Shown: positions 12,891 through 34,510 of the stretch, one piece after another | How positions within the stretch are numbered: position 1 is the stretch's first letter | How the letters are laid out: every line of letters starts with the position of its first letter | Source of the DNA: Parvularia atlantis | Lineage: Eukaryota | Direction of reading: 5' to 3' | NCBI GenBank assembly: GCA_943704415.1 | Contig: CALSCO010001544.1 | Coordinates: 1 to 47,944, forward strand | Length of the DNA stretch: 47,944 nt | The notes under the pieces: generated by a model | Database searches by the model: none | Told to the model about the DNA's origin: nothing | The model's input: the letters and a program-made list of their open reading frames with translations, nothing else | Made by a program: the position numbers and the translations under genes

Positions 12891-14784
12891 ATGGCCGACG
12901 CACGCGTGACTGGCCTCGTCGAGGCGCGGAAGTTGCCGGTTCCGCGCCGCACACGCACGCCGACCGCGCCGCGCCCGCAGGGCGACGACAAGGTGCAGGT
13001 CGCCGGCACCGACATTGACGGCGTCCTGCGCGGCAAGGTCATGAAGAAGTCCAAGTTTCTGTCGTCGCTGCGCGACGGCTTCGGTGCGCGCGCCCTGCGG
13101 CCACGGGACGTGCTCACGGCGCGCCTAAGGCTTCTGCGGCGTGATCTTTGGGTGGGACATTCACGACCGCGTCTACAACAAGAGTGCGTTCAGCACGGCC
13201 GAGACGGGCTTCGAGGACATCGTGGCCAAGGTCGACGTCGACTCGTTCCGGCGCCAGCCCTGGAATTCCGACGTGCCCTTCTTCCTCGTCGACTTTCTCT
13301 CGCCGCAGGGGGTGCGCCACGCCCCCGCGCAGCAAGCACGGCCCTGCTGATACGAGTGTGCGTGCAGACGCCGACGTTGATCTGCCCGCGCACGCTGCTC
13401 AAGAAGGTCGTGGGCGAGCTCAAGACGGCGGGCTTCAAGGCGTACGCCGGCGTCGAGTTTGAGTTCTACAACTTCCTCGGTGCGTGGGGCACGGGAGGCG
13501 CGGGGGGCTGGCGTGCGCGGACCTGACAGGCGCACCGTCGCGTAGAGACGCCCGAGTCGTTTGCGCAGAAGAACTACGTCAAGCCGACGCCGCTCACGCC
13601 GGGCATGTTTGGCTACTCGCTGCTGCGCCCGGCGCGCCACCAGGAGTTTTTCAACCGCCTGTTTGACGACATGAAGCGCTTCGACGTGCCGATCGAGGGC
13701 CTGCATACAGAGACCGGTGCGTACGACGCGTGCTTGCGAAGCGGTACTCATGCCCGCGGCAGGCCCCGGCGTGTACGAGGTCGCGATCGAGTACAGCGAC
13801 CCCGTCAGCTGCGCCGACCGTGCGCAGCTGTTCAAGACGGGCGCCAAGATCATCGGTGGCGAGTACGGCATCATGCCGTCGTTCATGGGTTCGTGTTGGC
13901 GCGCGCGCTGTTTAGGCCGCGCTGACCGAGGCGCGACAGCCAAGCCGGATCCCGCGCTGCCGGGCTGCTCGGGCCACACGCACTACTCCCTGTGGGACCT
14001 CGAGGGCAAGACGAACCTGTTTGCGGACGCGAGTGACCCCCGCAAGGCACGCACCCCGTGCTCGACGTGACGCCTCTCTCGGCAGCGCGACTGACGGCAC
14101 CGCCGCAGATGTCCCAGACGATGCGCCACTTCCTCGCCGGCCAGCTGCACTGCCTGCCGCACATCCTGCCCATGTTTGCGCCGACGATCAACAGCTACAA
14201 GCGTATGGTCGAGAACGGTGGCGTGACGCGCTCTCGCTTGCTTTCGCTCACCAGCCGCTCGCGGACGCGCAGCGTGGGCACCGGTCGTGGTGACGTGGGG
14301 CGTCGAGAACCGCACGGCGGCGTGCCGCGTGATCACGCTCTCGCCAAACGCGACGCGGATCGAGACGCGCGTAGGCGGCGCCGACATCAACACGTACCTT
14401 TGCATGGGTGCGTGCAGCGCGCGCTGCGCCGCTCGGCTGACTGGCTGCGACCGCAGCCGCCGCGCTGGCCTCCGGCCTGTACGGCATCCGCCACAAGCTG
14501 CCGCTGCAGCCCGAGTCGGTCGGCGACAACGTGCGCGACCCGTCGCACGCGCGCCTCCCGTCCAACCTGGGCGAGGCTGCGGCCAAGTGCGTGCGCGGAT
14601 GCGCGCAGACGTGTGGCCGACCCGGGCGCGCTCTGGCAGGATGGGCGCGAAGGACTCGGTCGCGCGCGAGCTCTTTGGCAACGAGTTTGTCGACCACTAC
14701 GTCGGCACGCGCCTGGAGGAGTGGGCACTCTACCAGCGCGCCGTGACTGACTGGGAGCTGAAGCGTTACTTTGAGCTTGTTTGA
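12891..14784 (+). CDS. Type I glutamine-synthetase-like protein (probable gamma-glutamyl-amine ligase), multi-exon
   Basis: DIDGVLRGKVM, GFCGVIFGWDIHD, GVEFEF, HTETGPGVYE, FMAKP..PGCSGHTHYSL, PTINSYKR, WGVENRT, RIETRVGGADINTYL, VTDWELKRYFE. Confidence 0.9.
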
Positions 14785-14885
14785 GAAGGTAGCGGTTGAG
14801 GCTGATGCGTCGTTCATGGTACTTTTAAAATAACTTACCACTGTCTCGCTTCTGTCGCGCTTACCGCGCCGTTTGCAGTGCCCGA

Positions 14886-16677
14886 TCAGTCAAAGTAGTC
14901 TTCTAGGTCCACGTCCGGGTCGAGCAGAACGTGCTCGATCGCCGACAGGTCTGTCCGGTTCAAGATCAGGTTCTCGAACGCCTCCTCCAGGTCGGTCTCG
15001 CCAATGAGCACGGCGCCGACGAGGCGGTGGTCGCGCACGACGGCCTTGACGTACTCCTGCCCCGGGGTGGAGCGCACGTGCACGGAAAAGTCGGTGCCGA
15101 GCGTCTGCCCGTTGTACAGCCCGAGCAGGACGACCTTGAAGCCGAAGAAGTTTGTCACGTGCGCAAACAGCTCGAACGAAAAGCTGCTCGCGAGCCAGTC
15201 GGCGTCAACGCGCCCGCGCCGCTGCTCGTGCACCATCGACAGCGCAGCCTCCATGCCCATTTCGCGCGCCTGCGTCCACAGGCGCATCTGCCCGCCACTG
15301 TCAGTGCAGCGGGCATGCAAGCGCCCGTCTGCGCACCTGGAACCACGTTGGCGAGGCACCGGGCCCGCGGTCGATCGTGCAGGCGTCACCCGCCGCCAGC
15401 ACGCCCGGCACGCTCGTGCGGAAGCGCCGGTCGACTTGCACGCCGCCGTCGCTGGCGCGCCGGAACTGGCGGTGCCACCGTCGGTTAGCCTCGTCACCCG
15501 CCCCCACGTGGCCGCGCACCTGCTCGCCCAGAAAGGCCGTGAACGGCTCGACGCCAATGGCCGAGACAACGACATCGCAGTTGATCGTGTCGCCGCTGCT
15601 GAGCACAACGCGGGCCGGCCACCCGTCGTCCGGCCGGCCGATGGTGGTCACCTGGGCGTCGTACACGACCCGAAGCGAGCTCTGTGGCCACATCTTGGCT
15701 AGCGACTGGGCGGCGGGTGAGCCTGCAGGCGCGCAAAAGCATCTGTGCGCAGAGGGGCGCCGCGCACCGACTTCTGCTGCTCGCTCAGCGCCGAGACCCA
15801 GTGTGGTCCCAGCGCCGCGCCGCGCACGGGTGCACGGGCGCAGTCCAGCTCTGCGCGTCGGCGCTTGTGGTCGCCGGTGGTGCGCGGCTGCTGCGCCGAC
15901 TCGACGTGCGCGAGCGTCGCAATGAAGAAGCGCGCCGCGCCCTCGTCAAAGTAGCTGCTGCCGAGCGTGTCGCCGCGGACGACCCAGATGACAGGCACGG
16001 CGCGCACGGCGTGTCTGCGCGGCGGCCGGTCAGCGACGCGATCGCGCCACGCCCGCCCGCCCGGCCGCACGCACACGATTTCGAGGGCGACGCCGCCGCT
16101 GCCCACGACGACGACGCGGCGCGACTGTTCCAGCCGCCGCGCCAGGTCCTGCACGCTCTCGGTGTCGCGCAGGCCGATCACCGACGGGTGCGGCGCGACG
16201 ATGCGTGGCACGGCGCCCGTGCACACGCACAGCTGGTCGTACGCGACGGCGCTATCGCGCGCGGCCCGCGCGCGCACGCGCACGACCTGCGCGACGGTCG
16301 TGCGCGTCGCGGTCAGCCCCCGTCCCGCCTGCGCGCCGTCGCCGCCGCACCCGCGCGGCCACGTCCACGCCGACGACCTCGCCCTGCACGAAGCGCACGC
16401 CGTGCGCGGCCAGCACGGCCTCGTTCTCCTCGGTGATGTCGAAGGTGACGCGGGCGCGCGAGAGTGTCTTGACGTTGCGTGCAAGCTGCGGCGGCGCGGC
16501 ATCGGCACGCGCGCCCCTCCTCCCCGCGGCGCGCGCCCGCCGCACCTTCAGCGTGGGCGAGGCCGAGATGAGCGTGACCGAGGCCGGCCCGTCGCCGAGC
16601 GTCTCGCGCAGCTGGAGCACGCACGAGACCCCGGCGATGCCGCCTCCCAGGACCACGAAGCGTGCGTCTGCTGTCAT
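14886..16677 (-). CDS. PYROXD1: Pyridine nucleotide-disulfide oxidoreductase domain protein 1, multi-exon
   Basis: [81 protein letters not shown], ends [12 protein letters not shown]. Confidence 0.95.
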
Positions 16678-16942
16678 CAAAGCATGGCTTCCGCTGTGTT
16701 GTCCTTCCGTCGTGCGCGTGCTGCCGCCGTGCTGCCGCTGCTCGGCCCGCTCAGGGACGTCCCCTTCGGTCTGTTTGGGAGGGGCTTGGTTGCGGGATTC
16801 CGCCCATGCACGCACCTGCTGGGCCGCAATCAGCTGACGGGACGCGCGCGCGCGCCCTGCTCTGCTCGCGCCCTCGCGCCCCCTCCTCGCTCTCGCCCAT
16901 GCACGCGCCCGCGCCTGCGCCGCAGATCCGCGCAGCAGCACC

Positions 16943-17580
16943 ATGTCGGACAAGGTCTGGTGGGTGGTCAAGTCGGGCGACGTCGACGACCTGGCGGAGC
17001 TGATGGGCAAGGAGAAGATCGACGTCAACGTCAAGAACGAGCAGGGTGCGCGCCCCGCTCCCGCCGCTGCCGCTGCCCGCCGCCCGCTGCGCCGCCTCTC
17101 ACGTCGCGCGCTGCGCCGTGCCGCGCAGGCCGCTCGCTGGCACACGTCGCGGCCGACTACAACTTTGTCGACATCCTCAAGTTCCTCAAGGGGAAGGGCG
17201 CGCAGATGGACGTGTGTGCCGACCGGCCGCCGCGCCATCCGCTCACGTCCCGCGCCCGCGCCAGACCAAGGACAAGCACGGCATCACGCCGCTGCTGTGC
17301 GCCATCTGGGAGGGCCACAAGGCCTCGGTCGAGTACCTGCTGAGCATCGGCGCGGGTGCGCCGTGCGGCCTCGTGAGCCGATGCGCAGTGCTGACGCCGG
17401 GGGGGCCGGCCACGCGCAGACGCCAAGGGCAAGACGCCCGAAGGCCAGTCGTACGTGGACGCGGCCGAGAACGCCGAGATCAAGGCCCTGCTCAAGGCCA
17501 AGTCGGGGTGCGCGTCGCGCGCGCGGCCTGGTGCACGCGGGGCGCACGCTGACGCGCAGGCTGCGGCGCGCTGCAGCTGA
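16943..17580 (+). CDS. MTPN: Myotrophin/V-1 (ankyrin-repeat capping-protein inhibitor), multi-exon
   Basis: MSDKVWWVVKSGDVD, HVAADY, DKHGITPLLCAIWEGH..VEYLLSIGAD, KTPEG..AAENAEIKALL: colinear with myotrophin along the full length. Confidence 0.9.
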
Positions 17581-17685
17581 TCCCCAGGCCCGAGCGGCTC
17601 GCCGTGTCACTGTCGCACCAGCTGCAGCTGCAGTGAGATGGGCTTTTTCCCTGTGCTCGTGCTCGTGTCCAACAAGAAGACGACG

Positions 17686-20181: not shown

Positions 20182-21449
20182 TCAGATATCGCTTGACCGG
20201 CGCAGACGGAACAGGCCCTTCTTTTCCTTTTTGAGCGTGCTGTCGTTGCGCTGCGACTCGCCACTCGAGCTTGCGCTCGTGCTCGTGCTCGTGCTCAAGC
20301 TGCTGGTGCCGTCGGCCCCGGGGCTCTCAGCGACCGTCTCGAGCATCGACATCCACGCGTCTGCCGCACGCCGCCGGCGTGAGCCAGCCGCCTCGCGTGT
20401 ATAATGCACGCGCAGCGCACCGGCCTTCGACCCCGTGCTCGCGATGCTACTGCCGCTGTTGCGGCGCGCGTCGCTTCGCGTCGGGAGGGGCAGTGTGGCC
20501 GTGCCAGGGTCGATGTTGCCGCCGCCGCCGCCGCCGAGCATGCCCATGATGCCCCACTGGCTCTTACGCTTCTCTTTCTGCTCGCGCGCGTGTGCGTGTG
20601 CATGAGCTGTCGCGCGCCACGGGCGCGAGCGAGCGCACCTTGGCTGCCTCATCACTGCGCTTGCGCTCGGCGTTGCGCCGTTGCTCGATCTGCGCGGCGA
20701 CTGCGCAAGCTCAGACGTGCCGTGCGAGCGATGCCGTGCGCGACGAACCGCGCTGCAGCGTCGCGATGACGGCCGAGTCGTTCGCCTGGTCCGCCTTCTC
20801 GAGCGCGATCGACAGCGGCGTCTGGCCAAGGTGGTCGGCGACGGTCGGGTCGGCGCGGTGCGTCAGAAGCAGCGCGATCATCTCGCGGTGCCCGTGGAAG
20901 ACGGCGCGGTGCAGCGGCGTCTGGCCAATGTGGTCAGGCTGGTTGGCGTCTGCGCGCGGGCGGGTGGCGGCGATGTTGAGGCGCGCGCGCTGCCGCGCTC
21001 CCCGTCCGCGCGCACCGCCGCCAAACTCGAACAGCGCGCGGCCGACGTCGATGCGGTTGTCGCGCGCGGCGTTGTGCAACGGCGTCCTTCACGCTCAGTG
21101 AGTGACCACGCGCCCGCACCGAGCGAGAGACGGCGCGCACCAGCCGTACTCCTTGTCGGCATGGTTCGGGTCCGCGCCCGCGTCCAGGCACTTGCTCACG
21201 AGCTCGAGGTCGCCGCGGCGCGAGGCCTCGTGCAGCTTCTGCTGGTACTCCTGCCGCGCGCGGACTTGCGTCGGCCAAACACGCGCGCGCGCTCACTCCC
21301 GCCGCACGCACGCTCAACGTCGCCGTCATGTCCAGCCCCGCGAGGATCCCCGCGCCGTAGCGGTGCCGCTGGTCCGCCGCGCCGTCGCCCGCGCCGTCGC
21401 CCTCCGTGACCGGCTCACCCTCAGCAACGTCGCATTCTTCGTCGATCAT
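20182..21449 (-). CDS. Ankyrin-repeat protein with acidic N-terminus and Ser-rich/basic C-terminus, multi-exon
   Basis: MIDEECDVAEGEP..., LHEASRRGDLELV..LDAGADPN, TPLHNAARDN, GQTPLHRAVFHGH..LLLTHRADP, GQTPLSIA; ends KKGLFRLRRSSDI. Confidence 0.8.
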
Positions 21450-21456
21450 CACCGTG

Positions 21457-24400
21457 ATGTACACAATCGATGATGACGATTCGCGGTCGTCGCGCGTCTC
21501 GTCTCACTCGCGCTGCGCGCCGGCAGCGGCGATGCCGTCGAGCTGGCCGCGACCGCGTTCCTCTCGAAGCACGTCTCCCCGACGCAGAGCGTTTTTGAGC
21601 TGCGCCCGGCCGCGACGCGCGCGCTGGTGCACACGGACTGCTTGGCATCACCGTGACGGCGCGGCTGACGCGCGAGCGGCGCAGGGCCTGCGCATGCTGC
21701 GCGAGGGCGAGGGCGATGCGCTGTTTGTCGAGGTCGAACGCCGCGCCGAGCAGGACATTGTGCCGGCCGCGGACTCGTTCGCCGCGCTGCTGCTCTTGCT
21801 CGGCCAGCCCGCGCACGCCGACCTGCGGCTGCACGTGCTCTTCGCGATGCCCGACGTGGCGTGGCTCGGCGTCGCGCACCCCCACATCGAGAGCTGCCTC
21901 GACGCCGGGCCCGTCGACGTGTTTGTCCTCGCGCGGCACGCCGACGACGTCGCGCACCTGCTCGGTCAGCGCGCGCGCTTCGTGCAGGGTGCGCGGGGCG
22001 CGCAGACATGACACCGTATGCCGCACAAACACGCACACGCGCCCGCGCGCAGTTGCCACAATGCACGAGGCCGCGCATCGCGTGCGCCAGGCCGGGCAGC
22101 GCCGCGCGGCCATCGCCGTCACGACGCCGCTTGCGCTGCCGGCGAACGGCCTGCGCTGCATCGGCGTGCTCCCGACGCACACGACCAGGTGCTGCTGCAT
22201 GCGTGCGCAGCAATCGACGCCGCTGACAACGCCAGGGCCGCTGCCGCAGCAAGTTCGCCGTCGTCACCCGGCGCGACCCGCCGCACTTCTCGCTGGCTCA
22301 GACAGATATGTCGACCTGCACGGCGCTGAGCGCGACACTGCCCAACACCGCCGGCGTCCTGGTACGCGTGCGCTGTGCGCGCGACATGTGCTGAGACGTC
22401 ACAGTACCGCAGCCTCGCTGGCTTCTACCTGCGCCAGATCGACATCGTCAGCGCGAGCATGCACCCCGTCTTGCCCGAGAGCGGCGTGTGCGTGTGTCTG
22501 CACTCGCGTGCCCGCAACCGACCGCAGCGTATGCAGACCGTTTGTTGACGAGAAGTGCACCGTGCTCGTGCTGGTCGTCGACGGGCCAATGGGAACGGAC
22601 GCAATGGTCGAGGCGATCAAGCACCTGTCGCAGTGCGCCGGCAACGTGCGTCGTGCGGGCCGGGCCAGGCGTGCACGCCTCACCGCCCCGGCATGCAGCT
22701 GCGCGTCCTCGGCACGTATGTCCAGACAGAGGCGTCCTTCGGCCAGGCGATGTGGCATCGGGTGGCGCGCGGGTCAGCCGCGTCGCCTGTGAGGGCGCGC
22801 GGGCTTTCGTGGCCGGCTGCACATGCTCACAATGCGTCATGGCCAGGTGCTTGCGGACTCGGGGCGGCGCGTCGACTTTGTCTCTGCCCTGCCGCGCGAG
22901 TTGGCCGCGCACGTGCTGCTGTACGCGATCGGGTATGTGACGCGGCGCGGCGACGGGCGCGCTGCTGACGCGGGCCGACGGACAGCGACGACATGCGCAC
23001 CGTGCTCGGCGTGATGTGCGTGAGCCGCGCGTGGCACAGCGTGGTCGACGGTGACAGCTTCTTCTGGCAGCAGTTGTGCACACAGCGCGGGTGGAGCTCG
23101 TCCGGCCCGTTTGGTCGGTGCTAGTGCAGGTGGGCACTCGCTGACCTGTGACGTGCAGACGGCGTGGCAAGCGGGGGATGGCGGGCGCGGGCGCGACGCA
23201 GGCACAAGCAGTCTGTCAGCCTGCGCCGAGGGCAGCTCACGACACTCAGCAGCCAGCGCGCAGAGTGCGGGCCCGGCGGTGCTGCCCGGTCGGTTTGCCG
23301 ACGGGCGCGCGTCGCAGCTCGACATTCTTTTTCAATATCATCGACGGCCGCCTCGTGCGCATCACCCAGCCACACAACCGCTGCCACGTGTTGCGGCTGG
23401 ATGGCAAGTTGCATGAGGTCTCGTACGCGCTCGGACACGACTCGTTCGGGTCGCAGGAGCTGCAGGTGCATGCGTGCCGCGCTCTCGCCGGGGCTGACGC
23501 TTGCGCGGGTCACGCAGTGCGCGTGGATCACGAGCGACGCCGTCGTCGCGCTGTTTGCGTCCGGCGTGCACGTGAGCTCGTGGCGCACGGGTGCCGAGCG
23601 ATGGCGCCTGCAGCGGCCGTGCGTCTCGCCCGCTCATTGCACGCCGCCCTCGCTGATCGACTGTGTGCCACAGATGCCTAGACGACACGCGCTTCATTGA
23701 CTGCGGTGCGCTGTACGTGTTGTACTCGCTCCGTGAGCAGGCGCTGCACGTGTACGACGCGCACGACGGCTCGCTGTGCGTGCCCGCCCTCGGCGTCATC
23801 GCCGCCTCCGGCTGACACGGCGCAAAGCAGCGTGCACTGGCACCAACTCGACCTGGCGTGCCTGCGCGTGGTCGGCAACGCGGCGCATCTGGTGTACTGG
23901 CTGGCCAACGGGCTCGAGCATGTGCGTCTGTCGGACCTGCGCGGCGATGCGCCGCTGCAGCCAGCGCCCCTCATGCGCCTGCACAGCAAGTACCGCAACT
24001 TTGAGTTGGTGTGTTGGACGCAGCACCTGCTGCTGGTGCTAACGCGTGCGTGTCAAATAGATCACGATCATCGACGACGTCGTGTACTGTCAGGGCGACA
24101 GCCAGCTGATCCGCTTCCACGTCGGTCTCAGCCCGCTGTACCAGCAGTTGGCCTACGACTACGGCAAGAACTACGTCCCGGGCATGGCGCGGCCGGACCA
24201 GATCCTGCTCATCCAGCGGCGGATCAACGACCAGCTCGTCGTCGGTGTGTGCTTGCGGCAAGCGTGCTCGACGCGCCTGCAATAACGCTGCACCCCGCCA
24301 GTGTTCAAGGACGACCAGTGGGTGAACGTGCGCGTTTTGCAGGAGTCGAGCGGGCTGCTGCTCACCATGCCCAACACGTGCGTAGCGCGTGCGGTGCCGT

Positions 24401-24533
24401 GCGCAGCTCACCGCCCCGCATCAGGAGGCCGATCAGCGTCCCGAACGTCGACGCGGTCAGGTTTGACGGCGAGCTGTTTGCCGTGGCCTCGCACTACGAG
24501 CAGCGAATGCTCACCGTGTACGCGTTCGGGTGA
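21457..24533 (+). CDS. Fusion protein: degenerate prephenate-dehydratase-like domain + ACT domain + F-box + beta-rich (propeller-like) C-terminus, multi-exon; start codon uncertain
   Basis: In-frame spliced model: ...ATMHEAAHRV..RAAIA..NGLRCIG..HTTSKFAVV..TLPNTAGVL|YRSLAGFYLRQIDIVSASMHP..MVEAIKHLSQCAGN|LRVLGTY..|DFVSALPRELAAHVLLY..VSRAWHSVVDGDSFFWQQLC..; TGA 24531-24533. The F-box is clear. The PDT/ACT assignment rests on remembered family motifs. Confidence 0.75.
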
Positions 24534-24548
24534 CCGGCTGTGAAATAC

Positions 24549-25513
24549 TCACTTGCGGCCCGCCCCTCGCTTGCCCGCGCGTGCACCACCGCCGCGTGCG
24601 CCATTACCGCGTGCGCCTCCGCCGCGCCCGCCGCCGCGCCCACCACGTCCGCCACGTGCACCACCTCGCCCGCCTCGTCCGCCTCGTCCGCCGCCCCGCC
24701 CGCCGCGTCCACCGCGTGCGCCGCCAAAGGACGGCAGCAGCTTGCGGATCTCTGCGTTGCTCCTGGCGCGCGGGCGAAGGCGGTCGGTCAGTGCCGCCTG
24801 CGCTCGCTCGCACGTCGGAGCTGCGCACTTCTTGACGTCGACGAGCGCTGCGCCGTTGCGGAAGCTGTCGCCCGGCGTGAAGGCTGGGCCGGCCGCGGGC
24901 GTGCCCTTGGCGCGCTCCTTGTCGCTCTTGGGCTTGACGTACGTGCCCTGCTCTTGTTGCTGCGCGCGTTGTGTAAGCGCCGTCGTCGCAGCTCGCGTGG
25001 GCTCGTGTGCGCACCCGGATGCGCGTCATCTTCGTCTCAAACTGGCGCTTGCGGTGCATGCCCTGCAGGATCGGCAGCGGGATCTTGTTGCGCTTGGGCG
25101 GCTGGCGAGCGAGCGGTCAGCCGACAGCACGTGTCCGCCATCTCGCGCGCGCACGATCGCGCCGAGCGCCACGCGCTGCTGCAGCTCGTGCTTCTTGCGC
25201 GCCTTGCCCTCGAGGCTGGATGTGGCTGCACGCGGGTGGCGCACACATCAGCCACGCGCGCCGTGCCAGGGCCACCCGCACCGAACGCCTCGACCTCGGC
25301 CAGCATCGCCGCGGTCACCGCTATGGACCTCGTCGCGGCCGTCCGCGGCGACGTCGCATCGGCCGCGGCCTTGCGCGCCTGCGGCGGCCCGCTGCGCGCC
25401 CGATGCCCGGCCGTGGGGTCTGCGCGCGCGTGTTCAGCCGCTTGGCATGGCGTGGCGGGTGCGCGCTGACCCTTGAAGACGACGACCTGAGGCGGCGGTC
25501 GCGTGGACGGCAT
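24549..25513 (-). CDS. DUF4602/Faf1/C1orf131-like small-subunit assembly factor with C-terminal RGG tail, multi-exon
   Basis: PQVVVF, EVEAF..SSLEGKARKKHELQQRVALGAI-PPKRNKIPLPILQGM, FRNG, long RGG/GRG tail ending GRK-stop. Confidence 0.65.
24575..24725 (-). repeat. Low-complexity coding repeat (RGG box)
   Basis: Degenerate CCGCC/CCACC units on the plus strand translate to [13 protein letters not shown]... on the minus strand. Confidence 0.8.
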
Positions 25514-25524
25514 TTGTCGGGCCG

Positions 25525-26898
25525 ATGCGTGCGACAGTGAAACGACTGGCCGAGCTGCCGGCCGGCGCACCGGTGCCGGTGGCCGACGTGCGTGCAGCCA
25601 TGGAGGAGATCCTGACGGGGCGGGCGACGGATGCGCAGGCGCGTGCCGGAGGCGCGCTGTGCCGCCGGCGCGGGCACCAACGCGCGCGCACACGCAGACG
25701 GCCGCGTTCGCGACGATCCTGCGCGCGCGCGGCGAGACGCCCGAGATCGTCGCGGCGTGCTGCGAGGCGCTGCAGCGGCACGCCCTAGCCTGCGACGTGC
25801 GCGATGCCGTCGACATCGTTGGCACGGGCGGCGACGGTCTGGACACGTTCAACGTGTCGACCTGCGCGGGCGTGGTCGCGGCGGCATGCGGCCTGCGCGT
25901 CGTCAAGGTGCGGTCTGCCGCGCACCCGAGGCCGACCGATGCCAACGCCGCCGCCCTGCGCGCAGCATGGCAACCGCGCCGCCAGCTCACTCTGCGGCAG
26001 CGCCGACGTGCTCGAGGCCCTCGGCGCCAAGATGAACATCACGCCGCCGGACGTGTCGCACATCGTCGACGCGTGCGGCTTCTGGTGCGCGGTGCGTGGG
26101 CCGGCAACGGCCTGCTCACGCCCGGCCGCGCAGCTTTGTCTTTGCGCAGCGCTTCCAGCCGGCGCTGCGGCACGCCGCGCGTGTGCGCCGCGAGATCGGC
26201 TTCCGCACTGTGTTTAACATCCTTGGGCCGCTGTCCAACCCGGCGCAGCCGCGCGCGATCCTCGCGGGCGTGTACTCGGAGCAGCTCGGGCAGCTCGTCG
26301 CCGAGACGTTCCAGCTGCAGGGTATGCGGCGCGCGATCGTCGTGTGCGGCCACGACGGGCTTGACGAGGTGTGCGCGCTGCTGCTGTAGTAGTCTTGCTC
26401 TGCTCATGCCCGCGTGCGCACTCGTGCGCAGATCAGTCCGTACGGCGCGACGACGGTGCGCCCTGCGCGACGCCACGCCGCTCGCAGCGCTGCTGACGGC
26501 GGCGCGGCGCAGGTGTGGTCGCTGCAGGACGGCAGCATCGCGCGCTCGACCGTCCACCCGACCGACTTTGGCCTACCCGTGCACACGCTTGAGGCCGTCA
26601 AGGGCGGCGACCCCGCGTTCAACAGCACCGTCTTCCGCGCCGTGCTGGCCGACAAGCCCGGGCCGTACCGCGACTGGGTGAGCGGGGCGGGCGCGCGCGG
26701 CCAAGGCTTCACGTGCGCCGGGCGCAGGTCGTGCTCAACGCGGGCGCGCTGCTGTTTGTGGCCGGCGCCGCGGCGACGATCGTGGAGGGCGTCGCGCAGG
26801 CACGCGCGGCGCTGGCGAGCGGAAAGGCGCGCGGCGTGCTCGAGCAGTACGTGCGCCTGTCGAGCGAGGCCGCGAGCATCACGGGCGGTCTCGAGTGA
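25525..26898 (+). CDS. trpD: Anthranilate phosphoribosyltransferase, multi-exon
   Basis: VDIVGTGGDGLDTFNVST, KHGNRAASSLCGSADVLEALG, RREIGFRTVFNILGPLSNP, GLDEISP, GGDPAFN, VVLNAGA. Confidence 0.96.
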
Positions 26899-26910
26899 TG
26901 TACACGCGTG

Positions 26911-27422
26911 CTAGCTGGCAGATGGCCTCGCTGGCGGCCGCTTGGTGACGGTGATGTGCACGGCCGAGTTGAGCCGCTCCTGGGCTGACGGCGTCTCGTC
27001 CTGCTCGCGCGGCGTGAGCGGCCGCACTCACTCGCACAACCGCGCGCGAGCCGCACCGGGTCCTGCGGGTCGAGGTCGTCAACGAGCGCGACGGTCGACG
27101 TGGTCGTGCTCAGCTCGAGCGCGCCAAGCGAGTCGCGCTGCAGCTTGAGGGCGAGCTCGATGGCCTTGGTCATGGCCGCGCCGAGGCCGTGGATGACGAC
27201 GCGCGGGCTGCATCCGCATCGCCCGTCAGCGCTCAGATTGCGCGCGGGGGCGCATCCACCGCGCGCGCACCGGTCGCTCGCCAGCAGCTGCTCGGCCCGA
27301 CGGTACTGCGCCATGAAGTTGCTGCGGCTGGCCACGTAGACGTCGTGCTCGAGCGTCGGCAGGCGCTGCGGCACGCGCTTGCGCACAGCGACCGGTGCAT
27401 CATCATCGGCGGCGCGCTTCAT
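26911..27422 (-). CDS. POP7: RNase P/MRP subunit Rpp20/Pop7 (Alba fold), multi-exon
   Basis: RKRVPQRLP..HDVYV..SNFMAQ, IHGLGAAMTKAIELAL, TSTVALVDDL, RLNSAVHI. Confidence 0.9.
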
Positions 27423-27514
27423 GCGTACGCAATCCGATGTCCTTCCGACTGTACTCTCGCCAGGCCGGGGGCACGGTGTTTCGATCTTGAGGGTAGGCCT
27501 AGCACGTGGTGACA

Positions 27515-29156
27515 ATGCTGGTGCCGGTGACCGCCTGCTCTGCGCCCGCCTCGCTCACCCCGCCCGCCTGCCCGCCCCGCAGACCGCCACGCGCCGCCTG
27601 TCGACCGCTACGGTGCGCGGCCTGCTCTCCCCTCTCGCAGGTGGCGGTGACCGCGCGACGTGCAGCGCGGCGTCACGCTCATCCCCGGCGACGGCATCGG
27701 CCCCGAGATCTCGGCCGCCGTGCGCCGCGTGTACGAGGGCGCGCACGTGCCGATCCACTGGGAGGTGCGCGCGCAAGCACGGCCGTGGCGGCGGCTCACG
27801 ACCGCGCGCGCGCGCAGGAGGTCGATGTGACGCCCAAGCGCGACGTTTCCGGCCGCATGATCCTGCCCGCGGAGCTCTATGAGTCGATGAACCGCACGCG
27901 CGTGGGCCTGAAGGGTGCGCTGCCGCCGGCGCCGCGCCGCCATCTCCGGGATGCTGCTGATGCGCCGTCGCCAGGCCCGCTGGCCACGCCCGTTGGTAAG
28001 GGCCACGTCTCGCTCAACCTCACGTTGCGGCGGCACGTGTGACCGCGACGCTCACTACCGCTAGCTCACACGCGCGCGCACGCACGCTCGCACCGCAGAG
28101 CGTTCAACCTCTACGCCAACGTGCGCCCGTGCAAGAGCATCGAGGGCTACAAGACGCTGTACGACAAGGTCGACTCGGTCATCATCCGCGAGAACACCGA
28201 GGGCGAGTACAGCGGCATCGAGCACGAGGCACGGCCGCCGGGCGCACCCACACGCGCGCGCACCCACACGCGCGCACATGCACGCAGCTGACGCGCCGTG
28301 CAGGTCACCAAGGGCGTCGTGCAATCGATCAAGGTCATCACGCGCGAGGCCTCGCGCCGCGTCGCCGACTACGCGTTCCAGTACGCGGTCGACAACAATC
28401 GCAAGCGCGTCACCTGCGTGCACAAGGCTAACATCATGTGCGCCGCGAGCGCGCCGCCTCGCCGCGTCTGCCGACCGCGCGTGCCGGCCCCACGCGCGCA
28501 GGAGGAAATCGGATGGCCTCTTCCTCGAGCAGTGCCACGAGGCCGCCAAGAATTACCCACAGATCCAGTTTGACGATGTGCTACTCGACCGCGCGTGCCT
28601 CAACGTGCGACGCCGCGCTCGCTCTCACGCAGGCGCCGCCGAGCTGACGCGCGCGCGCCCTGCCAGTCGGTCATCGACCCGACGCAGTTTGACGTGCTCG
28701 TCATGCCCAACCTCTACGGCGACATCCTCTCGGACATGTTCTCGGGCTTCATCGGCGGGCTGGGCCTGACGCCCTCGGGCAACCAGGGCTCGGACGGCGC
28801 CATCTTTGAGGCGGTGCGCGTTCCCGACCGCCGCAGCCTCGCGCGCCCAACCCTGCGCGTGCCGCAGGTGCACGGCACCGCGCCCGACATCGCCGGCCAG
28901 GACAAGGCCAACCCGACGGCGCTGCTGATGTCGAGCGTGATGATGCTGCGGTACATGAAGCTGAACGAGCACGCCGACCGGATCGAGAAGGTGCGCGTGA
29001 GAGGGCGCGCAAGAGCACTGCCGCTGCTGATGCGCAACCCCACCCGGCCAGGCCGCGCTCAAGACCATCTCGCAGCGCAAGGTGCTCACGGGCGACCTCG
29101 GCGGCAAGGCCAAATGCTCCGAGTATGCTCAGGCGATCGTCGACAACCTTGAGTGA
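27515..29156 (+). CDS. IDH3A: Mitochondrial NAD-dependent isocitrate dehydrogenase, catalytic (alpha-type) subunit, multi-exon
   Basis: Short presequence [90 protein letters not shown]. Confidence 0.95.
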
Positions 29157-29183
29157 GCACGTGGTGTCTCCTGCGATACTGCA

Positions 29184-30129
29184 CTACAACACAGTCGCCG
29201 CGGCCGCGTCGCCCGCCAGCAGGCCGAGCGCACGCAGCCGGTGGAGCGCCATCAGTGCCGTCTGCACGCTCGGCAGCATCACCCGCCCGGCCAGGACGAG
29301 CTCGCGCAGCTCGGCCACGGTCACTTCGCGCTCCTCCATGAACAGCTCTGCGCGCCAATGGGTGGGCTGAAAAGCGCGCGAAGGGGGGCCGCAGACAGCG
29401 CACCGTCAGCGTCGCGCTCCGCCAGCTGCGCCGTGTCCTTCTGCGGGTCGATGCAGAGCCACGGGGAGAACTTGTTGGTGCTCCACTTGAGCTGCGTGCG
29501 CGCTTTAGCGATCGACCACACCCGCACGCGGGGTTCGCCCTACCTCGCTCACGCCCGTGTGACCGTCCGGCAGCAGCGGCTCCCAGTGGCCACCCGACAG
29601 CCGCGCCTCCTCGGCCAGCTCGCACCGGGCGGCGTCGAGCACACTGCCGCACGCGCACGAACGTGTCAGCTGCCACACGCACGAGCACAAGCACCCACAC
29701 AGCAACCTGCTGTGCGCCTGCCGCTCGTACTGGCCCGCGGCGAGCGTGTACATCTTGTGCGCGCGCGCACGGGGTCACGCACACGCCGCTTGCCCGACCC
29801 GCGCGACGACGCACAAACTCATTGGGGCCCTGGGCGTACTCGCGCACGAGCGTGGTCGTGCCCTGGGCAGCCCGTCAGCCGGCGGCGCACACCACACGGG
29901 GCGAGGCAGCGCACCCGCGCCGTGCTGAACGGGAAGACGACGACGAAGACCGGGTTCGGCTGCATGTGCCCGACCACGTCCCAGTCGACATCGCGCCCGT
30001 CCGGGAAGCGCACGGTGCGGCTCCACAGTGCCAGGTAGCGCTTGTGCAGGCGCGTCTCGGCCACGACTGGCACTGCGCGAGGCGGCGCGATCAGGCGTGA
30101 AGATCGTGACAGACCGACGCCACACACAT
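29184..30129 (-). CDS. Nudix hydrolase, multi-exon (start at 30129 or 30155)
   Basis: RTVRFPDGRDVDWDVVGH, LVREYAQG, Nudix box AGQYE...DAARCELAEEARL. Confidence 0.8.
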
Positions 30130-30153
30130 TGACTCGAGCTCGCGCTGGTCTGC

Positions 30154-31514
30154 ATGTCCGCGAACTTCTGGAGCAGCAGTCACTGGCAAGCGCGCGGCAG
30201 CCGCAGGCGCACTTTGCCCGCTGACCGATGTGCACGCCCATGCGTGCGCGCGCGCCGCAGCAACCACTGGCTGCTGAGCCGACAGCGCGTCGCGCTCGCG
30301 CAGCAGGACGACACTCAGATTGTGACGCCTCAGGAGCTGCGGCTGCTGCGGCTGCACTTTATCACTGGTGCGCGCTGCTCCTCGCTTCTTGCGCCGCACG
30401 CCGCCTCATGCGCTGCGTCGCTCCCAGTGATCCAAAAGGCCGCGAGCATCCTGCAGCTGCGGCAGCAGGTACTCGCGACGGCCATCGTCTACTTCCGCCG
30501 CTTCTACGTCAAGTGCGCGGCACCGACGCGCGCCGCACCCGCCTCATGCGCCCGCGGCGGCAGCAACTCGTTCCGCGTGTGCGACCCCATCCTCGTCGGG
30601 CCGACGTGCATCTACCTCGCGTGCAAGGTCGAGGAGTGCTCCGTGATCCAGGCCAATGCGATGATCGACAAGTTCAAGCAGAACTGTGCGCGCGGCCGCC
30701 CCGCCGAGGGGTACTGCCTCATGTGCGGCCGCCGCAGCCAACGACACCCCGTTCAAGCGGTACCCGTACAACGCCGAGGCGATCCTCGAGTGCGAGTACT
30801 ACCTGCTGGAGGAGCTCGACTGCTACCTGATCGTGTACCACCCGTACAGGCCGCTGACGCAGTGCGCCCGGGCACTGCCCCGCGTTCCCGCGTGCGTGCT
30901 CACCCGGCCCGTGCGTGCAGGTACATGAGCGACCTCAAGCTGGAGGCGCACCTGCAGACAGCCTGGAACATCGTCAACGACAGCTACCACACCGACGTCT
31001 GCCTGCTCTACCCGCCGCACATGACCGCGCTGGCCGCGATGTACATGGCCGTGCTGCTCTCGGACGATGCGAGCGGGCCGCTGACGTCCTCGGCCGCCGA
31101 CGTCGCAGCGGCCGCGGCGGGCGCCCCTGCAGGCGCCCCGGCAGGCGACGCGGCGGGGACGATGTGCGCCTTCGACTGCGCCACGCGCGGACGCTCACAC
31201 GCGCGCGCAGGACGGCGGCAGGGGTGGTCAGTGCGTTTACGAGCGACGCCGGCAAGACGTCGCGCACGGCCGAGCTTCGGCGGTGGTTCTCGGAGCTCAA
31301 CGTGGACATGGACGAGGTGCGCGCGCGCCATCGGCCCTGCCCCCGCGCCAGCCTCACACGCGCACCGGCCCAGATTGTCGAGATCACCCAGCAACTGCTC
31401 GACTTCTACGCTTTCTACGCGTTCCAGGCCGGCAACCCCGACTGCGGCACGCTGCTCGAGGTCGTGCAGCGCGTGCGTGGGCCGCAGATCCAGGGAGCGG
31501 GCATGCCTGGGTGA
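30154..31514 (+). CDS. CCNC: Cyclin C (Mediator kinase module), multi-exon
   Basis: MSANFWSSSH, LRQQVLATAIVYFRRFY, TCIYLACKVEE, ILECEYYLLEELDCYLIVYHPYRPL, AWNIVNDSY.TD.CLLYPPHM, WFSELNVDM. Confidence 0.96.
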
Positions 31515-31549
31515 CGCTGTGTAGCGGAAGATTTTGCCGATCACGTGCG

Positions 31550-34510
31550 ATGAGTGCCGAGGCGGAGCGTGTCGCGGCCGCGATCCACGCTGGTGCGCCG
31601 CGCGGCACAAGTGCAGCACCAGCGCATGACACCGCGCGCCGCGCGCACGGCAGAGGCGGTCGATCCGCGCGACGACATCAAGCGCGAGCGCACGCGCGCC
31701 ACGTTCGCCGCGGGTGAGCTCGCCCAGTACCTGCACGGCGGCAAAGAGGGCCTCGCACGCCGCAAGCTCATCACCGACGCGCTCGTCGCGTGCGTGTGCG
31801 CGGCGCGGCGGGAGGGGCCGTGCGGCTGACGGCACGCCGCTGCCGCCAGCGACCCGCGCTTCCGCCGCGACGACCTGTGCTTCCTGTCGCGCACGGAGCA
31901 GCACCGTCGCGCCATGTGCGTCGTCTTCCAGCCTGCCTCGGCCACCACACTGACGCCGCGCGCGCGTGCACAGGAGCATGGCGCTCGCCCTGCCGCCGCT
32001 AATGGACAAGCTCAAGCTGTCGGGCGAGGAGGAGCGCTTCCTGTCCAACTCAGTCGACACGGCGCTGCCGACCAACCTGCACGTGTCCATGTTCGTCAAC
32101 ACGATCGAGGGGCAGGCCACGGACGAGCAGAAGGCCTACTGGCTGCCCAAGATCCACAACTACGAGGTGCGCCTCCGTCCGCACGCACGTCGGCAGGCAC
32201 ACTTTCGCGGGCCGAACACCGCGCGGCGCAGATCATCGGCACGTACGCCCAGACCGAGCTCGGCCACGGCACATACATTCGCGGCCTCGAGACCTTCGCC
32301 GTCTACGACAAGGCCCGCCAGGAGTTTGTGTTCCACACGCCGACCGACTCGGGCATCAAGTGGTGGCCGGGGTGCGCGCGCATGCGCTTGCACCCGCCTC
32401 GACAGGTCGCTGACGCCCCGTGCGCCGTAGCGGCCTCGGCAAGACGTCGACGCACTGCATCCTCATGGCGCGCCTCGTGCTCGAGGGCAAGGACCTCGGC
32501 CCGCACGCGTTCGTGATCCAGCTGCGCGACCTCAAGACGCACCTGCCGCTGCCGGGCGTCGAGCTGGGCGACATCGGCCCGAAGCTGGGCTGTGCGTGCT
32601 GGTCCGACGCTCGGTGAGTGCGCTCACACGCACGCCCTCGCCCACAGATGTCACCATCGATAACGGCTATCTCCGTCTGAGTGCGTGCCCTCCTGCACGC
32701 CGTCGCGCGCACCGCCTGACACCGCCGACCAGCCAACTACCGCGCGCCGCGCAACGTCATGCTCATGCGCTTCGCCAGCATCACCCCAGACGGCAAATAC
32801 TCGAGCCCGCCCGTGGCCAAGGCCAGCTATGCGACTATGGTCTTCATCCGGTGCGCCGCCGTCGCGCTCGCAGCGGGCGCAGCGGCCAAAAAAACACGCG
32901 GCGGCACAGCGCGCACATCGTCATTGACGCCGGCCTGTACCTGGGCAAGGCCGTCACGATCGCCACGCGCTACTCGGCCGTGCGCCGCCAGGGCGAGAAG
33001 GTTGGCCCGCACGAGACGCAGGTGCTCGACTTCCAGACGCAGCAGTGGCTGCTCTTCCCGCTCCTGGCCACGGCGCACGCGCTGCTGTTCACCGGCCGCT
33101 ACATGAAGAAGATCTACTACGACTTTATCGCGGCACGCGACACCAAGGTGCGCCTGCGGAGCGCGGGACGGGACCGCACGGCGCGCGACTGACGCGACGC
33201 GACGGTGCGCAGGGCGACTTCTCGTCCCTGCCGGAGCTGCACGCGACCTCGGCCGGGCTCAAGTCGCTGTGCACGTACCTGACGGCCGACGGCATCGAGG
33301 TCTGCCGCAAGGCTTGCGGCGGCCATGGGTGCGCCCGCGCGGTGTACACCGCGCGGGCTGCTCACGTGCACGCTCAGCTACCACGCCTTCTCGGGCTTCC
33401 CGCAGCTCGAGAACGACTACGTGCCGAACGCAACGTACGAGGGCGAGAACGTGGTTATGGGTGCGTGCGGCGGGCCCATCGTCGGCCGCGCGTGCTCACG
33501 GTCGCGACCCGCAGCCTTGCAGACGGCGCGCTACCTCGCCAAGGCCGCGCTCGACGCCGCCAAGGGCAAGGCGCCTGAGGGCAACGCGCACTACCTCGCC
33601 AGCCTCGGCCGGCTCGCGAGTGAGCGCTGGGAGGTGCGCCAGGCTGCCCGCTGCCGCGCTCAAGGGCTAAACACCGCGGCGGCAGGTGCGCGAGCAGGCC
33701 GACGTGCTCTCCGGCGACAAAATCGTGGCGGCCTTTGCGCACCGCGCGGCCCGCCTCGTCGCCGTCGCCACGCAGCAAATCGGCGAGCACATGAAGGTTC
33801 GCGCGGCCGTCGGTCGTGGCACCGCGCTCAGACGCGTGTGCGCTGGCGCCGTGCAGAAGGGCGAGGACTTCAAGGCTGCGTTCGAGCACCACACGGTCGA
33901 CCTGCTGCTGGCGAGCAAGGCGCACTGCGCGTACATCCTCGTCAGGAACTTTGTGCAGGTGCGTCGCCGGCAGGCGTGCAGCGGTGTGCGGTTCTGACGC
34001 TGCGGGCGGGCGCAAGGGCGTGGCAGCGCTGCCGGCCAACGCGAGCTTCACACCGGTGCTGCGCACGCTGTGTGCGCTTTTTGGCCTGTTTGAGATGGAG
34101 AAGGTGCCGTAACATGCCGGCGCCTCGTTGCTCTGCGCTCATCCTGCGTTGCGCAGGCCATGGGCGACTTCCTTGAGGACGGCTACGTCTCGGCACGCCA
34201 GGCCGCGTTGGTGCGCGCCCAGAGCCGCGCGCTGCTCGCCGTCGTCCGGTGGCGTTGCCGGGGCACGCGCTTGGTGTGCCGGTGGCTGACACGCAAGCGC
34301 AGCCCGAACGCCGTCGCGCTCGTGGACGCGTTTGACTTCTCCGACTACTCGCTCAATTCGTCGCTCGGCCGCTACGACGGCGACGTCTACCGCGACATGT
34401 ACCGCCGCGCGCAGCTCGAGCCGCTCAACGCGACGCCCGAGGGCCCGGCCTGGGACATCCTCAAGACGGTTGTGCCGCACGGCTACAGCAAGATGCCCTC
34501 AAAACTGTGA
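31550..34510 (+). CDS. ACOX1: Peroxisomal acyl-CoA oxidase with PTS1 (SKL), multi-exon
   Basis: [83 protein letters not shown]-terminal SKL-stop. Confidence 0.96.

Follow-up and report, generated by a model that had tools for sequence, protein, structure and literature searches.

Introduction

F-box receptors of the FBXW kind, such as Cdc4, Met30, Fbw7 and beta-TrCP, are built, in this order, from a dimer-forming N-terminal part, an F-box, a linker and a propeller, and in Cdc4 and Met30 the N-terminal D domain is reported to be required for homodimerization and substrate ubiquitination (PMC7032732). A sensor, an F-box and a repeat domain also share one chain in ZEITLUPE, FKF1 and LKP2 (LOV, F-box, Kelch), which are described as controlling the stability of their targets (PMC7968664), while in CASTOR1 aspartate-kinase-like ACT domains are reported to serve as a dimeric arginine sensor (PMC5187391). 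Here we describe a gene of Parvularia atlantis in which a module resembling prephenate dehydratase (PDT) and its ACT domain is fused with an F-box and a beta-rich tail. The gene is located on contig CALSCO010001544.1 of assembly GCA_943704415.1, whose positions 1 to 47,944, the whole stretch that was analyzed, we call the window; the gene and all parts of it named below are on the forward (+) strand.

The predicted layout of the fusion protein matches the domain order of the FBXW receptors, its F-box gave weak profile matches to the F-boxes of FBXW7, FBXW8 and Cdc4, and the fold matches of a tail model included Fbw7 and beta-TrCP. In contrast to these receptors, its N-terminus is a 310-aa enzyme-derived module rather than a short D domain, and its tail exons are without a WD40 family match. 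With ZEITLUPE it has in common the layout of sensor, F-box and repeats in a single chain, with no homology implied; the ZEITLUPE sensor is a light-sensing LOV domain of shown function, whereas the PDT-ACT module is a putative ligand sensor. CASTOR1 likewise borrows an ACT part, but it has no F-box or dead catalytic domain and signals via GATOR2. The fusion protein belongs to neither the ZEITLUPE nor the CASTOR1 family, and its TRF columns do not read as those of an active PDT. The original prediction, an earlier reading of this DNA, held that no described protein was known to have this architecture, and a search of titles and abstract openings, mostly of open-access papers, found no description of a PDT/ACT-F-box protein in the literature.

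One Transcribed Gene Joins the PDT-ACT Module, the F-Box and the Tail

With a GC content of about 70%, the window is densely packed with genes, and introns measure about 40–65 bases. Joining a three-frame reading and a splice-site list by coordinates gave a gene model of 18 exons and 17 introns, in which 726 codons run from the ATG at 21457 to the TGA at 24533 with zero internal stops. From 21527 on, the modeled frame outscored both other forward frames by codon score in 17/17 exons, with a narrow margin for 23159–23264.

We treated run X1 as RNA on the basis that its contigs skip GT-AG introns. Thirteen of the 17 modeled introns are removed in these contigs, 12 of them on a 1618-nt contig that begins at 22294 and reaches about 24530, the other (21627–21684) on a 372-nt contig (contig 2, first letter 21475). 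Among the 12 is intron 22789–22846, whose removal unites the ACT exon in frame with the F-box exon; RNA contig 3 skips it, and the shorter flank of the joint there has 85 letters. A single spliced contig thus carries ACT, F-box and tail exons together, including the joint 22788/22847. We placed weight on this splice joint and not on the extent of the contig because contigs can fuse neighbors, and a 2905-nt contig of the adjacent ankyrin-repeat gene exceeds the apparent length of that gene. The 8 leading letters of the contig at 22294 mismatch the genome there, probably as an end artifact.

X1 cover has a gap at about 21905–22293, and the lack of a contig bridging the N-terminal half to the ACT domain is uninformative either way. 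Introns 21989–22052 and 22189–22249 have zero RNA cover, and each coincides in column and phase with an intron of the ortholog described below. We tied the N-terminal half to the ACT domain because of the open frame, the continuous PDT homology and the ortholog. The fusion of PDT-ACT, F-box and tail is one real gene. A split into two separate genes was excluded: the in-frame ATGs that an F-box-only gene could use (22824 and 22833) fall within the intron that is spliced out, and in the ortholog the ACT end and the F-box share one exon.

These results bear out several claims of the original prediction. Its single stop-free frame extends over 726 codons and 17 introns, and its five introns (22189–22249, 22362–22404, 22488–22536, 22646–22698, and 22789–22846) are all GT-AG, four of them being spliced in X1. 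The junction 22788/22847, for which it had called for a transcript check, is present in spliced RNA, and its claim of one gene is backed by that joint and by the matching layout in a second species.

A Second Organism Carries the Same Architecture

A HMMER search with one read-through frame returned three matches in 1.84 billion proteins, namely the protein's own tail and two metagenome fragments. In a metagenome scan, three loci (L112–L114) were confirmed out of 399 pattern matches; their overlap regions are 100% identical, and we therefore counted them as one genotype, referred to here as the ortholog. Among viral contigs, 0/95 pattern matches were confirmed. Word-based homolog searches gave 0 matches, which is a weak blank since one such search missed the existing entries P0002 and P0004.

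The genotype has a GC content of 53%. The ortholog gene is intact, comprising 759 codons in 11 exons with a single stop, and its protein has the same domain order as that of Parvularia and is identical to it at 280/723 residues. All of its introns (10/10) coincide with Parvularia introns in column and phase, and gene order at the locus follows that of the window between 21 and 33.8 kb. Four-fold sites are near saturation (63/99 differ), so the conservation of residues reflects long selection on the protein. By part, identity was 28/54 for the second half of the PDT domain, 39/93 for the ACT domain, 22/57 for the F-box and 104/282 for the tail, the enzyme-derived part being conserved no less than the remaining protein. 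The ACT end, the F-box and the following linker form a single exon in the ortholog, with no counterpart of intron 22789–22846. This exon also runs uninterrupted where Parvularia has a candidate intron at 23114–23158. The single-exon arrangement is evidence for the fusion and also that this intron is real. The reach of the architecture looks narrow so far, comprising two related single-celled eukaryotes.

The Prephenate Dehydratase and ACT Domains

For family comparisons we used a hidden Markov model (HMM) of 31 bacterial PheA proteins, consisting of E. coli PheA and 30 PF00800 loci from 29/30 searched genomes; the HMM and HHalign comparisons were targeted pairwise tests, not library searches. 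The N-terminal ~310 aa, as an alignment of the two orthologs, matched PDT plus ACT of the 31 PheA (HHalign 96.7%, E = 3.4e-10) across 271 columns that kept their order. The colinearity with PheA (PF00800; PDB 2QMX) takes in the linker, the G-x-L of the ACT loop and the closing LG-x-Y/F strand; the fusion protein differs from PheA in the catalytic and regulatory motifs given below and in the F-box and tail that follow. The original prediction had expected a PDT/ACT profile match for this half, and one was found, strong for the ACT domain and weak for the first lobe.

The degenerate PDT catalytic domain (21527–22275) is encoded by exons 21527–21626, 21685–21988 and 22053–22188 and the start of 22250–22361. 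It matched the family with HHalign 67% and E = 5.2e-5, and its first lobe by itself weakly with 12% and E = 0.0024, each above 60/60 column shuffles. Against the HMM, the catalytic part alone scored 3.8 bits in Parvularia, a value reached by 11/1000 shuffles; for the ortholog the score was 11.0 bits, which 0/1000 shuffles reached. Library scans of single exons from Parvularia and the ortholog gave no PDT or ACT family match, and NCBIfam gave nothing relevant among 5 proteins.

The TRF motif is reported to be critical for catalysis, with GALV and ESRP acting as regulatory motifs (PMC13217925). The TRF columns, which read TRF in 31/31 family rows, read SKF in Parvularia and RKY in the ortholog. 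Because the TRF threonine is lost in both species, the enzyme appears to be dead, and dehydratase activity is very likely gone. The original prediction had read SKF and SMHP at the catalytic and ACT motifs and from both concluded that the enzyme was probably dead; both readings were correct, and the loss of the catalytic motif extends to the second species. At the ENS columns, where the alignment of the lobe is less sure, we found ERR and EHQ (family E 31/31, N 29/31), and the Parvularia copy keeps 10/19 conserved columns compared with 15–19 in family rows. Restoration of TRF by alternative splicing was considered and rejected, as it would need a non-canonical intron end, and the ortholog has an intron at the same place as 22189–22249. 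In a tree whose rows comprised 31 bacterial and zero eukaryotic PDT, the ortholog pair had a long branch (3.57 changes per column towards the family side) and lacked a usable sister group.

The PDT-type ACT domain (22320–22725) spans part of exon 22250–22361, exons 22405–22487 and 22537–22645 and part of 22699–22788, and its three inner introns are spliced in RNA. It scored 27.5 bits against the HMM in Parvularia and 21.1 bits in the ortholog, each above 1000/1000 shuffles, and HHalign gave 94.4% with E = 9.4e-8. The GAL-type loop after strand 1 reads N-T-A-G-V-L in Parvularia and N-E-K-G-S-L in the ortholog, with N-x-x-G-x-L retained in both, and the N-L/M pair ahead of strand 2 is D-I and D-V, respectively.

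F-Box, Linker and Tail Beyond the ACT Domain

The F-box (22871–23085) is split between exons 22847–22932 and 22986–23113. Half of the motif, in the second exon alone, scored 23.5 bits against PF12937 (E = 4.6e-5, cut-off 24.3), while the ortholog F-box stretch scored 25.3 bits against the same cut-off of 24.3, or 21.8 bits with the whole 144-aa exon as query; PF00646 stayed under its cut-off in both species. In a PDB profile search, 9 of the 13 matches up to E = 10 were F-box proteins (E = 0.012–1), and single exons searched against PDB with phmmer gave nothing relevant. As is usual for F-boxes, this one very likely binds Skp1.

Behind it, 23159–23264 resembles the FBXW linker weakly (profile positions 8–105 against FBXW7 residues 17–108, E = 0.18), with 11/44 residues identical to the ortholog and a weak codon score. 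The beta-rich tail follows in seven exons (23318–24533, stop TGA 24531–24533); its six inner introns and the preceding one are spliced in RNA, and its final 134 aa are the database protein P0001. We modeled the ortholog tail from 212 read-through residues, 34 of them intron-derived, and obtained four-stranded meanders at a mean predicted local distance difference test (pLDDT) score of 49.6; Foldseek and VIA matches of this low-confidence model were mostly beta-propellers. Modeling the final 134 residues gave a weaker result than this, and a structure model of P0004 (pLDDT 0.39) was too poor and was left unused. No WD40 family match was found on single tail exons or on the read-through stretch, where short exons make sensitivity low. 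On these models, the tail is probably a propeller that would hold substrates. The order of PDT-ACT, F-box and propeller-like tail given in the original prediction is supported, with the same layout in the second species and the tail resting on low-confidence models.

A Possible Amino-Acid-Tuned Ubiquitin Ligase Receptor

We tentatively propose, at slightly less than even confidence, that this one protein is a substrate receptor of an SCF (Skp1-cullin-F-box) ubiquitin ligase, in which a likely dead PDT-ACT module would dimerize the receptor and would be likely to tune it via a small molecule at the ACT-ACT interface. The F-box would bind Skp1, and the tail propeller would bind the substrate. 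The module would be expected to form its usual side-by-side dimer and so probably to substitute for the D domain that dimerizes Cdc4 and Met30: since PDT-ACT proteins are dimeric and about 25 residues lead from the last ACT strand to the F-box, the module is placed where Cdc4 and Met30 carry that domain. PDT homologues are reported to occur in open and closed states and to homodimerize via the ACT sheet (PMC8192741). A ligand held between the ACT domains could drive such an open/closed change, which would affect how far apart the two ligase arms lie or the state of the dimer. That the ligand toggles the dimer in this way, changing substrate ubiquitylation or the receptor's own turnover, is the step of which we are least sure, and we regard it as somewhat short of an even chance. 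Amino-acid gating, put forward in the original prediction, likewise stays a hypothesis here. In Parvularia, retention of intron 23114–23158 would yield a tail-less form of ~400 aa, which would lack a substrate site but could bind Skp1, or else a nonsense transcript that is destroyed. A possibility on which we would place less confidence is that the dead lobes and the ACT dimer make up a built-in amino-acid switch of an SCF ligase, a metabolite-gated E3 in one chain, in an organism closely related to fungi, with the retained intron setting the tail-bearing share. If the proposal is true, the level of an amino acid would be coupled directly to protein destruction within one chain, and the protein would offer a compact model of enzyme feedback domains turning into signaling parts and a natural template for ligand-switched degraders.

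Several observations speak against this proposal, two of them in the ligand pocket and others, taken up in the next section, in the Parvularia gene model. In PDT-type proteins, Phe is reported to sit at the ACT dimer interface (PMC3828330, PMC8192741), and for the ACT domain of phenylalanine hydroxylase (PAH) three Phe-binding regions are described, two of which also build the dimer interface (PMC4822156). Assuming that the PAH motif names of the latter source carry over to the ACT columns here, the ESRP columns read SMHP in Parvularia and SLHP in the ortholog, so that only P is retained and the family Ser (29/31 rows) is changed in both species; the YxF strand reads T-V-L and T-G-C, the F found in 31/31 family rows being replaced by L and C. 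The N-x-x-G-x-L loop and the D-I/V pair, both retained in the two species, match regions that in PAH bind Phe and build the dimer interface (PMC4822156). In our reading, the amine/carboxyl (backbone-binding) side of the pocket survives, and the side that receives the Phe side chain is altered. Because the YxF Phe and the ESRP Ser are changed in both species, Phe is doubtful as the ligand and we consider it an unlikely candidate; an aliphatic amino acid would appear to fit the altered pocket equally well.

The same changes bear on the main rival, in which the protein is still an SCF receptor but ligand binding has been lost and PDT-ACT serves as a fixed dimerization or scaffold domain. This would explain why the side-chain pocket is altered in both species, and the residues that are retained are ones that double as dimer interface in PAH (PMC4822156); the reported dependence of Cdc4 and Met30 on the D domain for homodimers and ubiquitination (PMC7032732) gives a precedent. 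However, a three-subdomain module of 310 aa has been kept whole at 37–52% identity, which would seem to exceed the needs of plain dimerization, and the ligand loop has preserved its G and L. We consider this explanation rather unlikely.

Clearly less probable is that the dead module acts as a substrate hook that binds the cell's active PDT, or some other ACT enzyme, as a partner and delivers it to SCF. Homodimerization of PDT-type proteins via the ACT sheet, as reported (PMC8192741), would allow such pairing, and a tail-less transcript would still encode the module and the F-box, but the long branch of the module makes pairing with a normal PDT doubtful, and the conserved tail is available as the usual substrate site. 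It is also quite improbable, and slightly more so, that the N-terminal module has remained an enzyme, tethered to the ligase and acting on a new substrate. The PDT homologue GqqA is reported to have gained acylase activity (PMC8192741), and both species have new motifs by the cleft, HEAAHR and HPH among them; the position of the catalytic Thr is nevertheless S in one species and R in the other, and the N of ENS is R and H, which is unlike a conserved active site.

Retained Introns and the Start Codon in Parvularia

The proposal of a full-length, ligand-tuned receptor is further strained in Parvularia by the splicing of the gene. Introns 21486–21526 and 23114–23158 are left unspliced in the RNA contigs, and the original prediction had overlooked both the retention of the latter and the weak donor of the former, which lies at the start. 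All 13 introns seen spliced have GTG or GTA donors, the donors of both unspliced ones are GTC, and at 41 and 45 bases these two belong to the shortest introns.

The 45-nt intron 23114–23158 has a weak GTC donor and contains two in-frame stops (TAG 23122–23124 and TGA 23149–23151), its codon score of −1.43 is non-coding, and it is kept in the sole RNA contig, whose piece 22985–23264 is unbroken; in this form, TAG ends the protein at about 400 residues, just past the F-box. The contig shows that the retained form exists. It does not make the spliced form absent, as contigs lose rare forms. P0001 begins at the tail's first Met, which fits a transcript with an upstream stop; this entry possibly derives from the same data, and we did not count it as independent. 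Stop read-through of 23114–23158 was excluded: it would have to pass both TAG and TGA, the gene itself ends at a TGA, and the codon score here is a non-coding one.

Two readings of the 5′ end were compared. In model A, a candidate first exon (21457–21485) begins at ATG 21457; it scores +0.26 bits/codon over 9 codons and aligns without gaps to the N-terminus of the ortholog (P = 0.005, shuffle). It requires intron 21486–21526, a 41-nt intron whose GTC donor is the weakest scored (−7.1 compared with 1.4–9.0 for confirmed donors) and which is unspliced in the contig. In model B, an open frame at 21477–21526, unspliced in contig 2, resembles the first strand of the ortholog (P = 0.011) but has no in-frame ATG and a codon score of −0.06; ATGs 21470 and 21473 are out of its frame, and 21473 is the position that matches the ortholog start. 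Both readings resemble the ortholog marginally, codon use leans slightly to ATG 21457, and we modestly favor that ATG as the start. A separate upstream frame from ATG 21470/21473 (21470–21598) ends in TTT TGA, a shifty-stop motif like that of antizyme genes; a +1 shift there would join the main frame yet skip conserved residues, and the motif is likely due to chance.

Intron 22189–22249, which splits the former catalytic motif, has a rival CAG acceptor at 22235 that is closer to a branch-like site than the acceptor at 22249, and its use would lead to a stop at 22329 (codon 228).

That the Parvularia gene is decaying or makes mostly a truncated product, with a full-length working protein in the relative only, would fit the two unspliced GTC-donor introns, an out-of-frame ATG 21473 at the ortholog start position and the start of P0001, but it is the least probable of the alternatives, given no further lesion in ~720 codons, a modeled frame that is the best of three in every exon from 21527 on, and three GTC donors (17749, 17933, and 18594) predicted among the 17 introns of the neighboring aldehyde dehydrogenase (ALDH) gene, so that such donors are used, although these counts are rough, the unsupervised gene finder having failed on 4/17 of the fusion gene's intron calls.

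Genomic Context

Gene order downstream of the fusion gene is common to window 24549–33800 and L113 4747–12620, and comprises FSAF1-like, Rpp20-like, isocitrate dehydrogenase-like and Nudix genes, an uncharacterized gene and an acyl-CoA oxidase gene. In the window, a trpD-like gene (anthranilate phosphoribosyltransferase; PF00591, PF02885) lies at 25519–26898, 1 kb downstream and between the FSAF1-like and Rpp20-like genes. It has no counterpart at the syntenic place in L113, where a stretch of ~400 bases stands instead (L113 5520–5900), and because of this absence from the ortholog locus we claim no pathway cluster. The first intron of the trpD-like gene (25639–25697) is apparently GC-AG, since only a GC donor preserves the frame from ATDAQ to TAAFATILR.

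Upstream, a divergent ankyrin-repeat gene on the minus strand (20711–21449) starts about 8–24 bases from the candidate starts of the fusion gene, and its RNA contig begins at 21458. In the ortholog, a different divergent gene lies 23 bases from the ATG. Farther upstream, the predicted proteins of 13041–17590 are presumably a glutamine-synthetase-like protein, a pyridine nucleotide-disulphide oxidoreductase-like protein (minus strand) and a short ankyrin protein.

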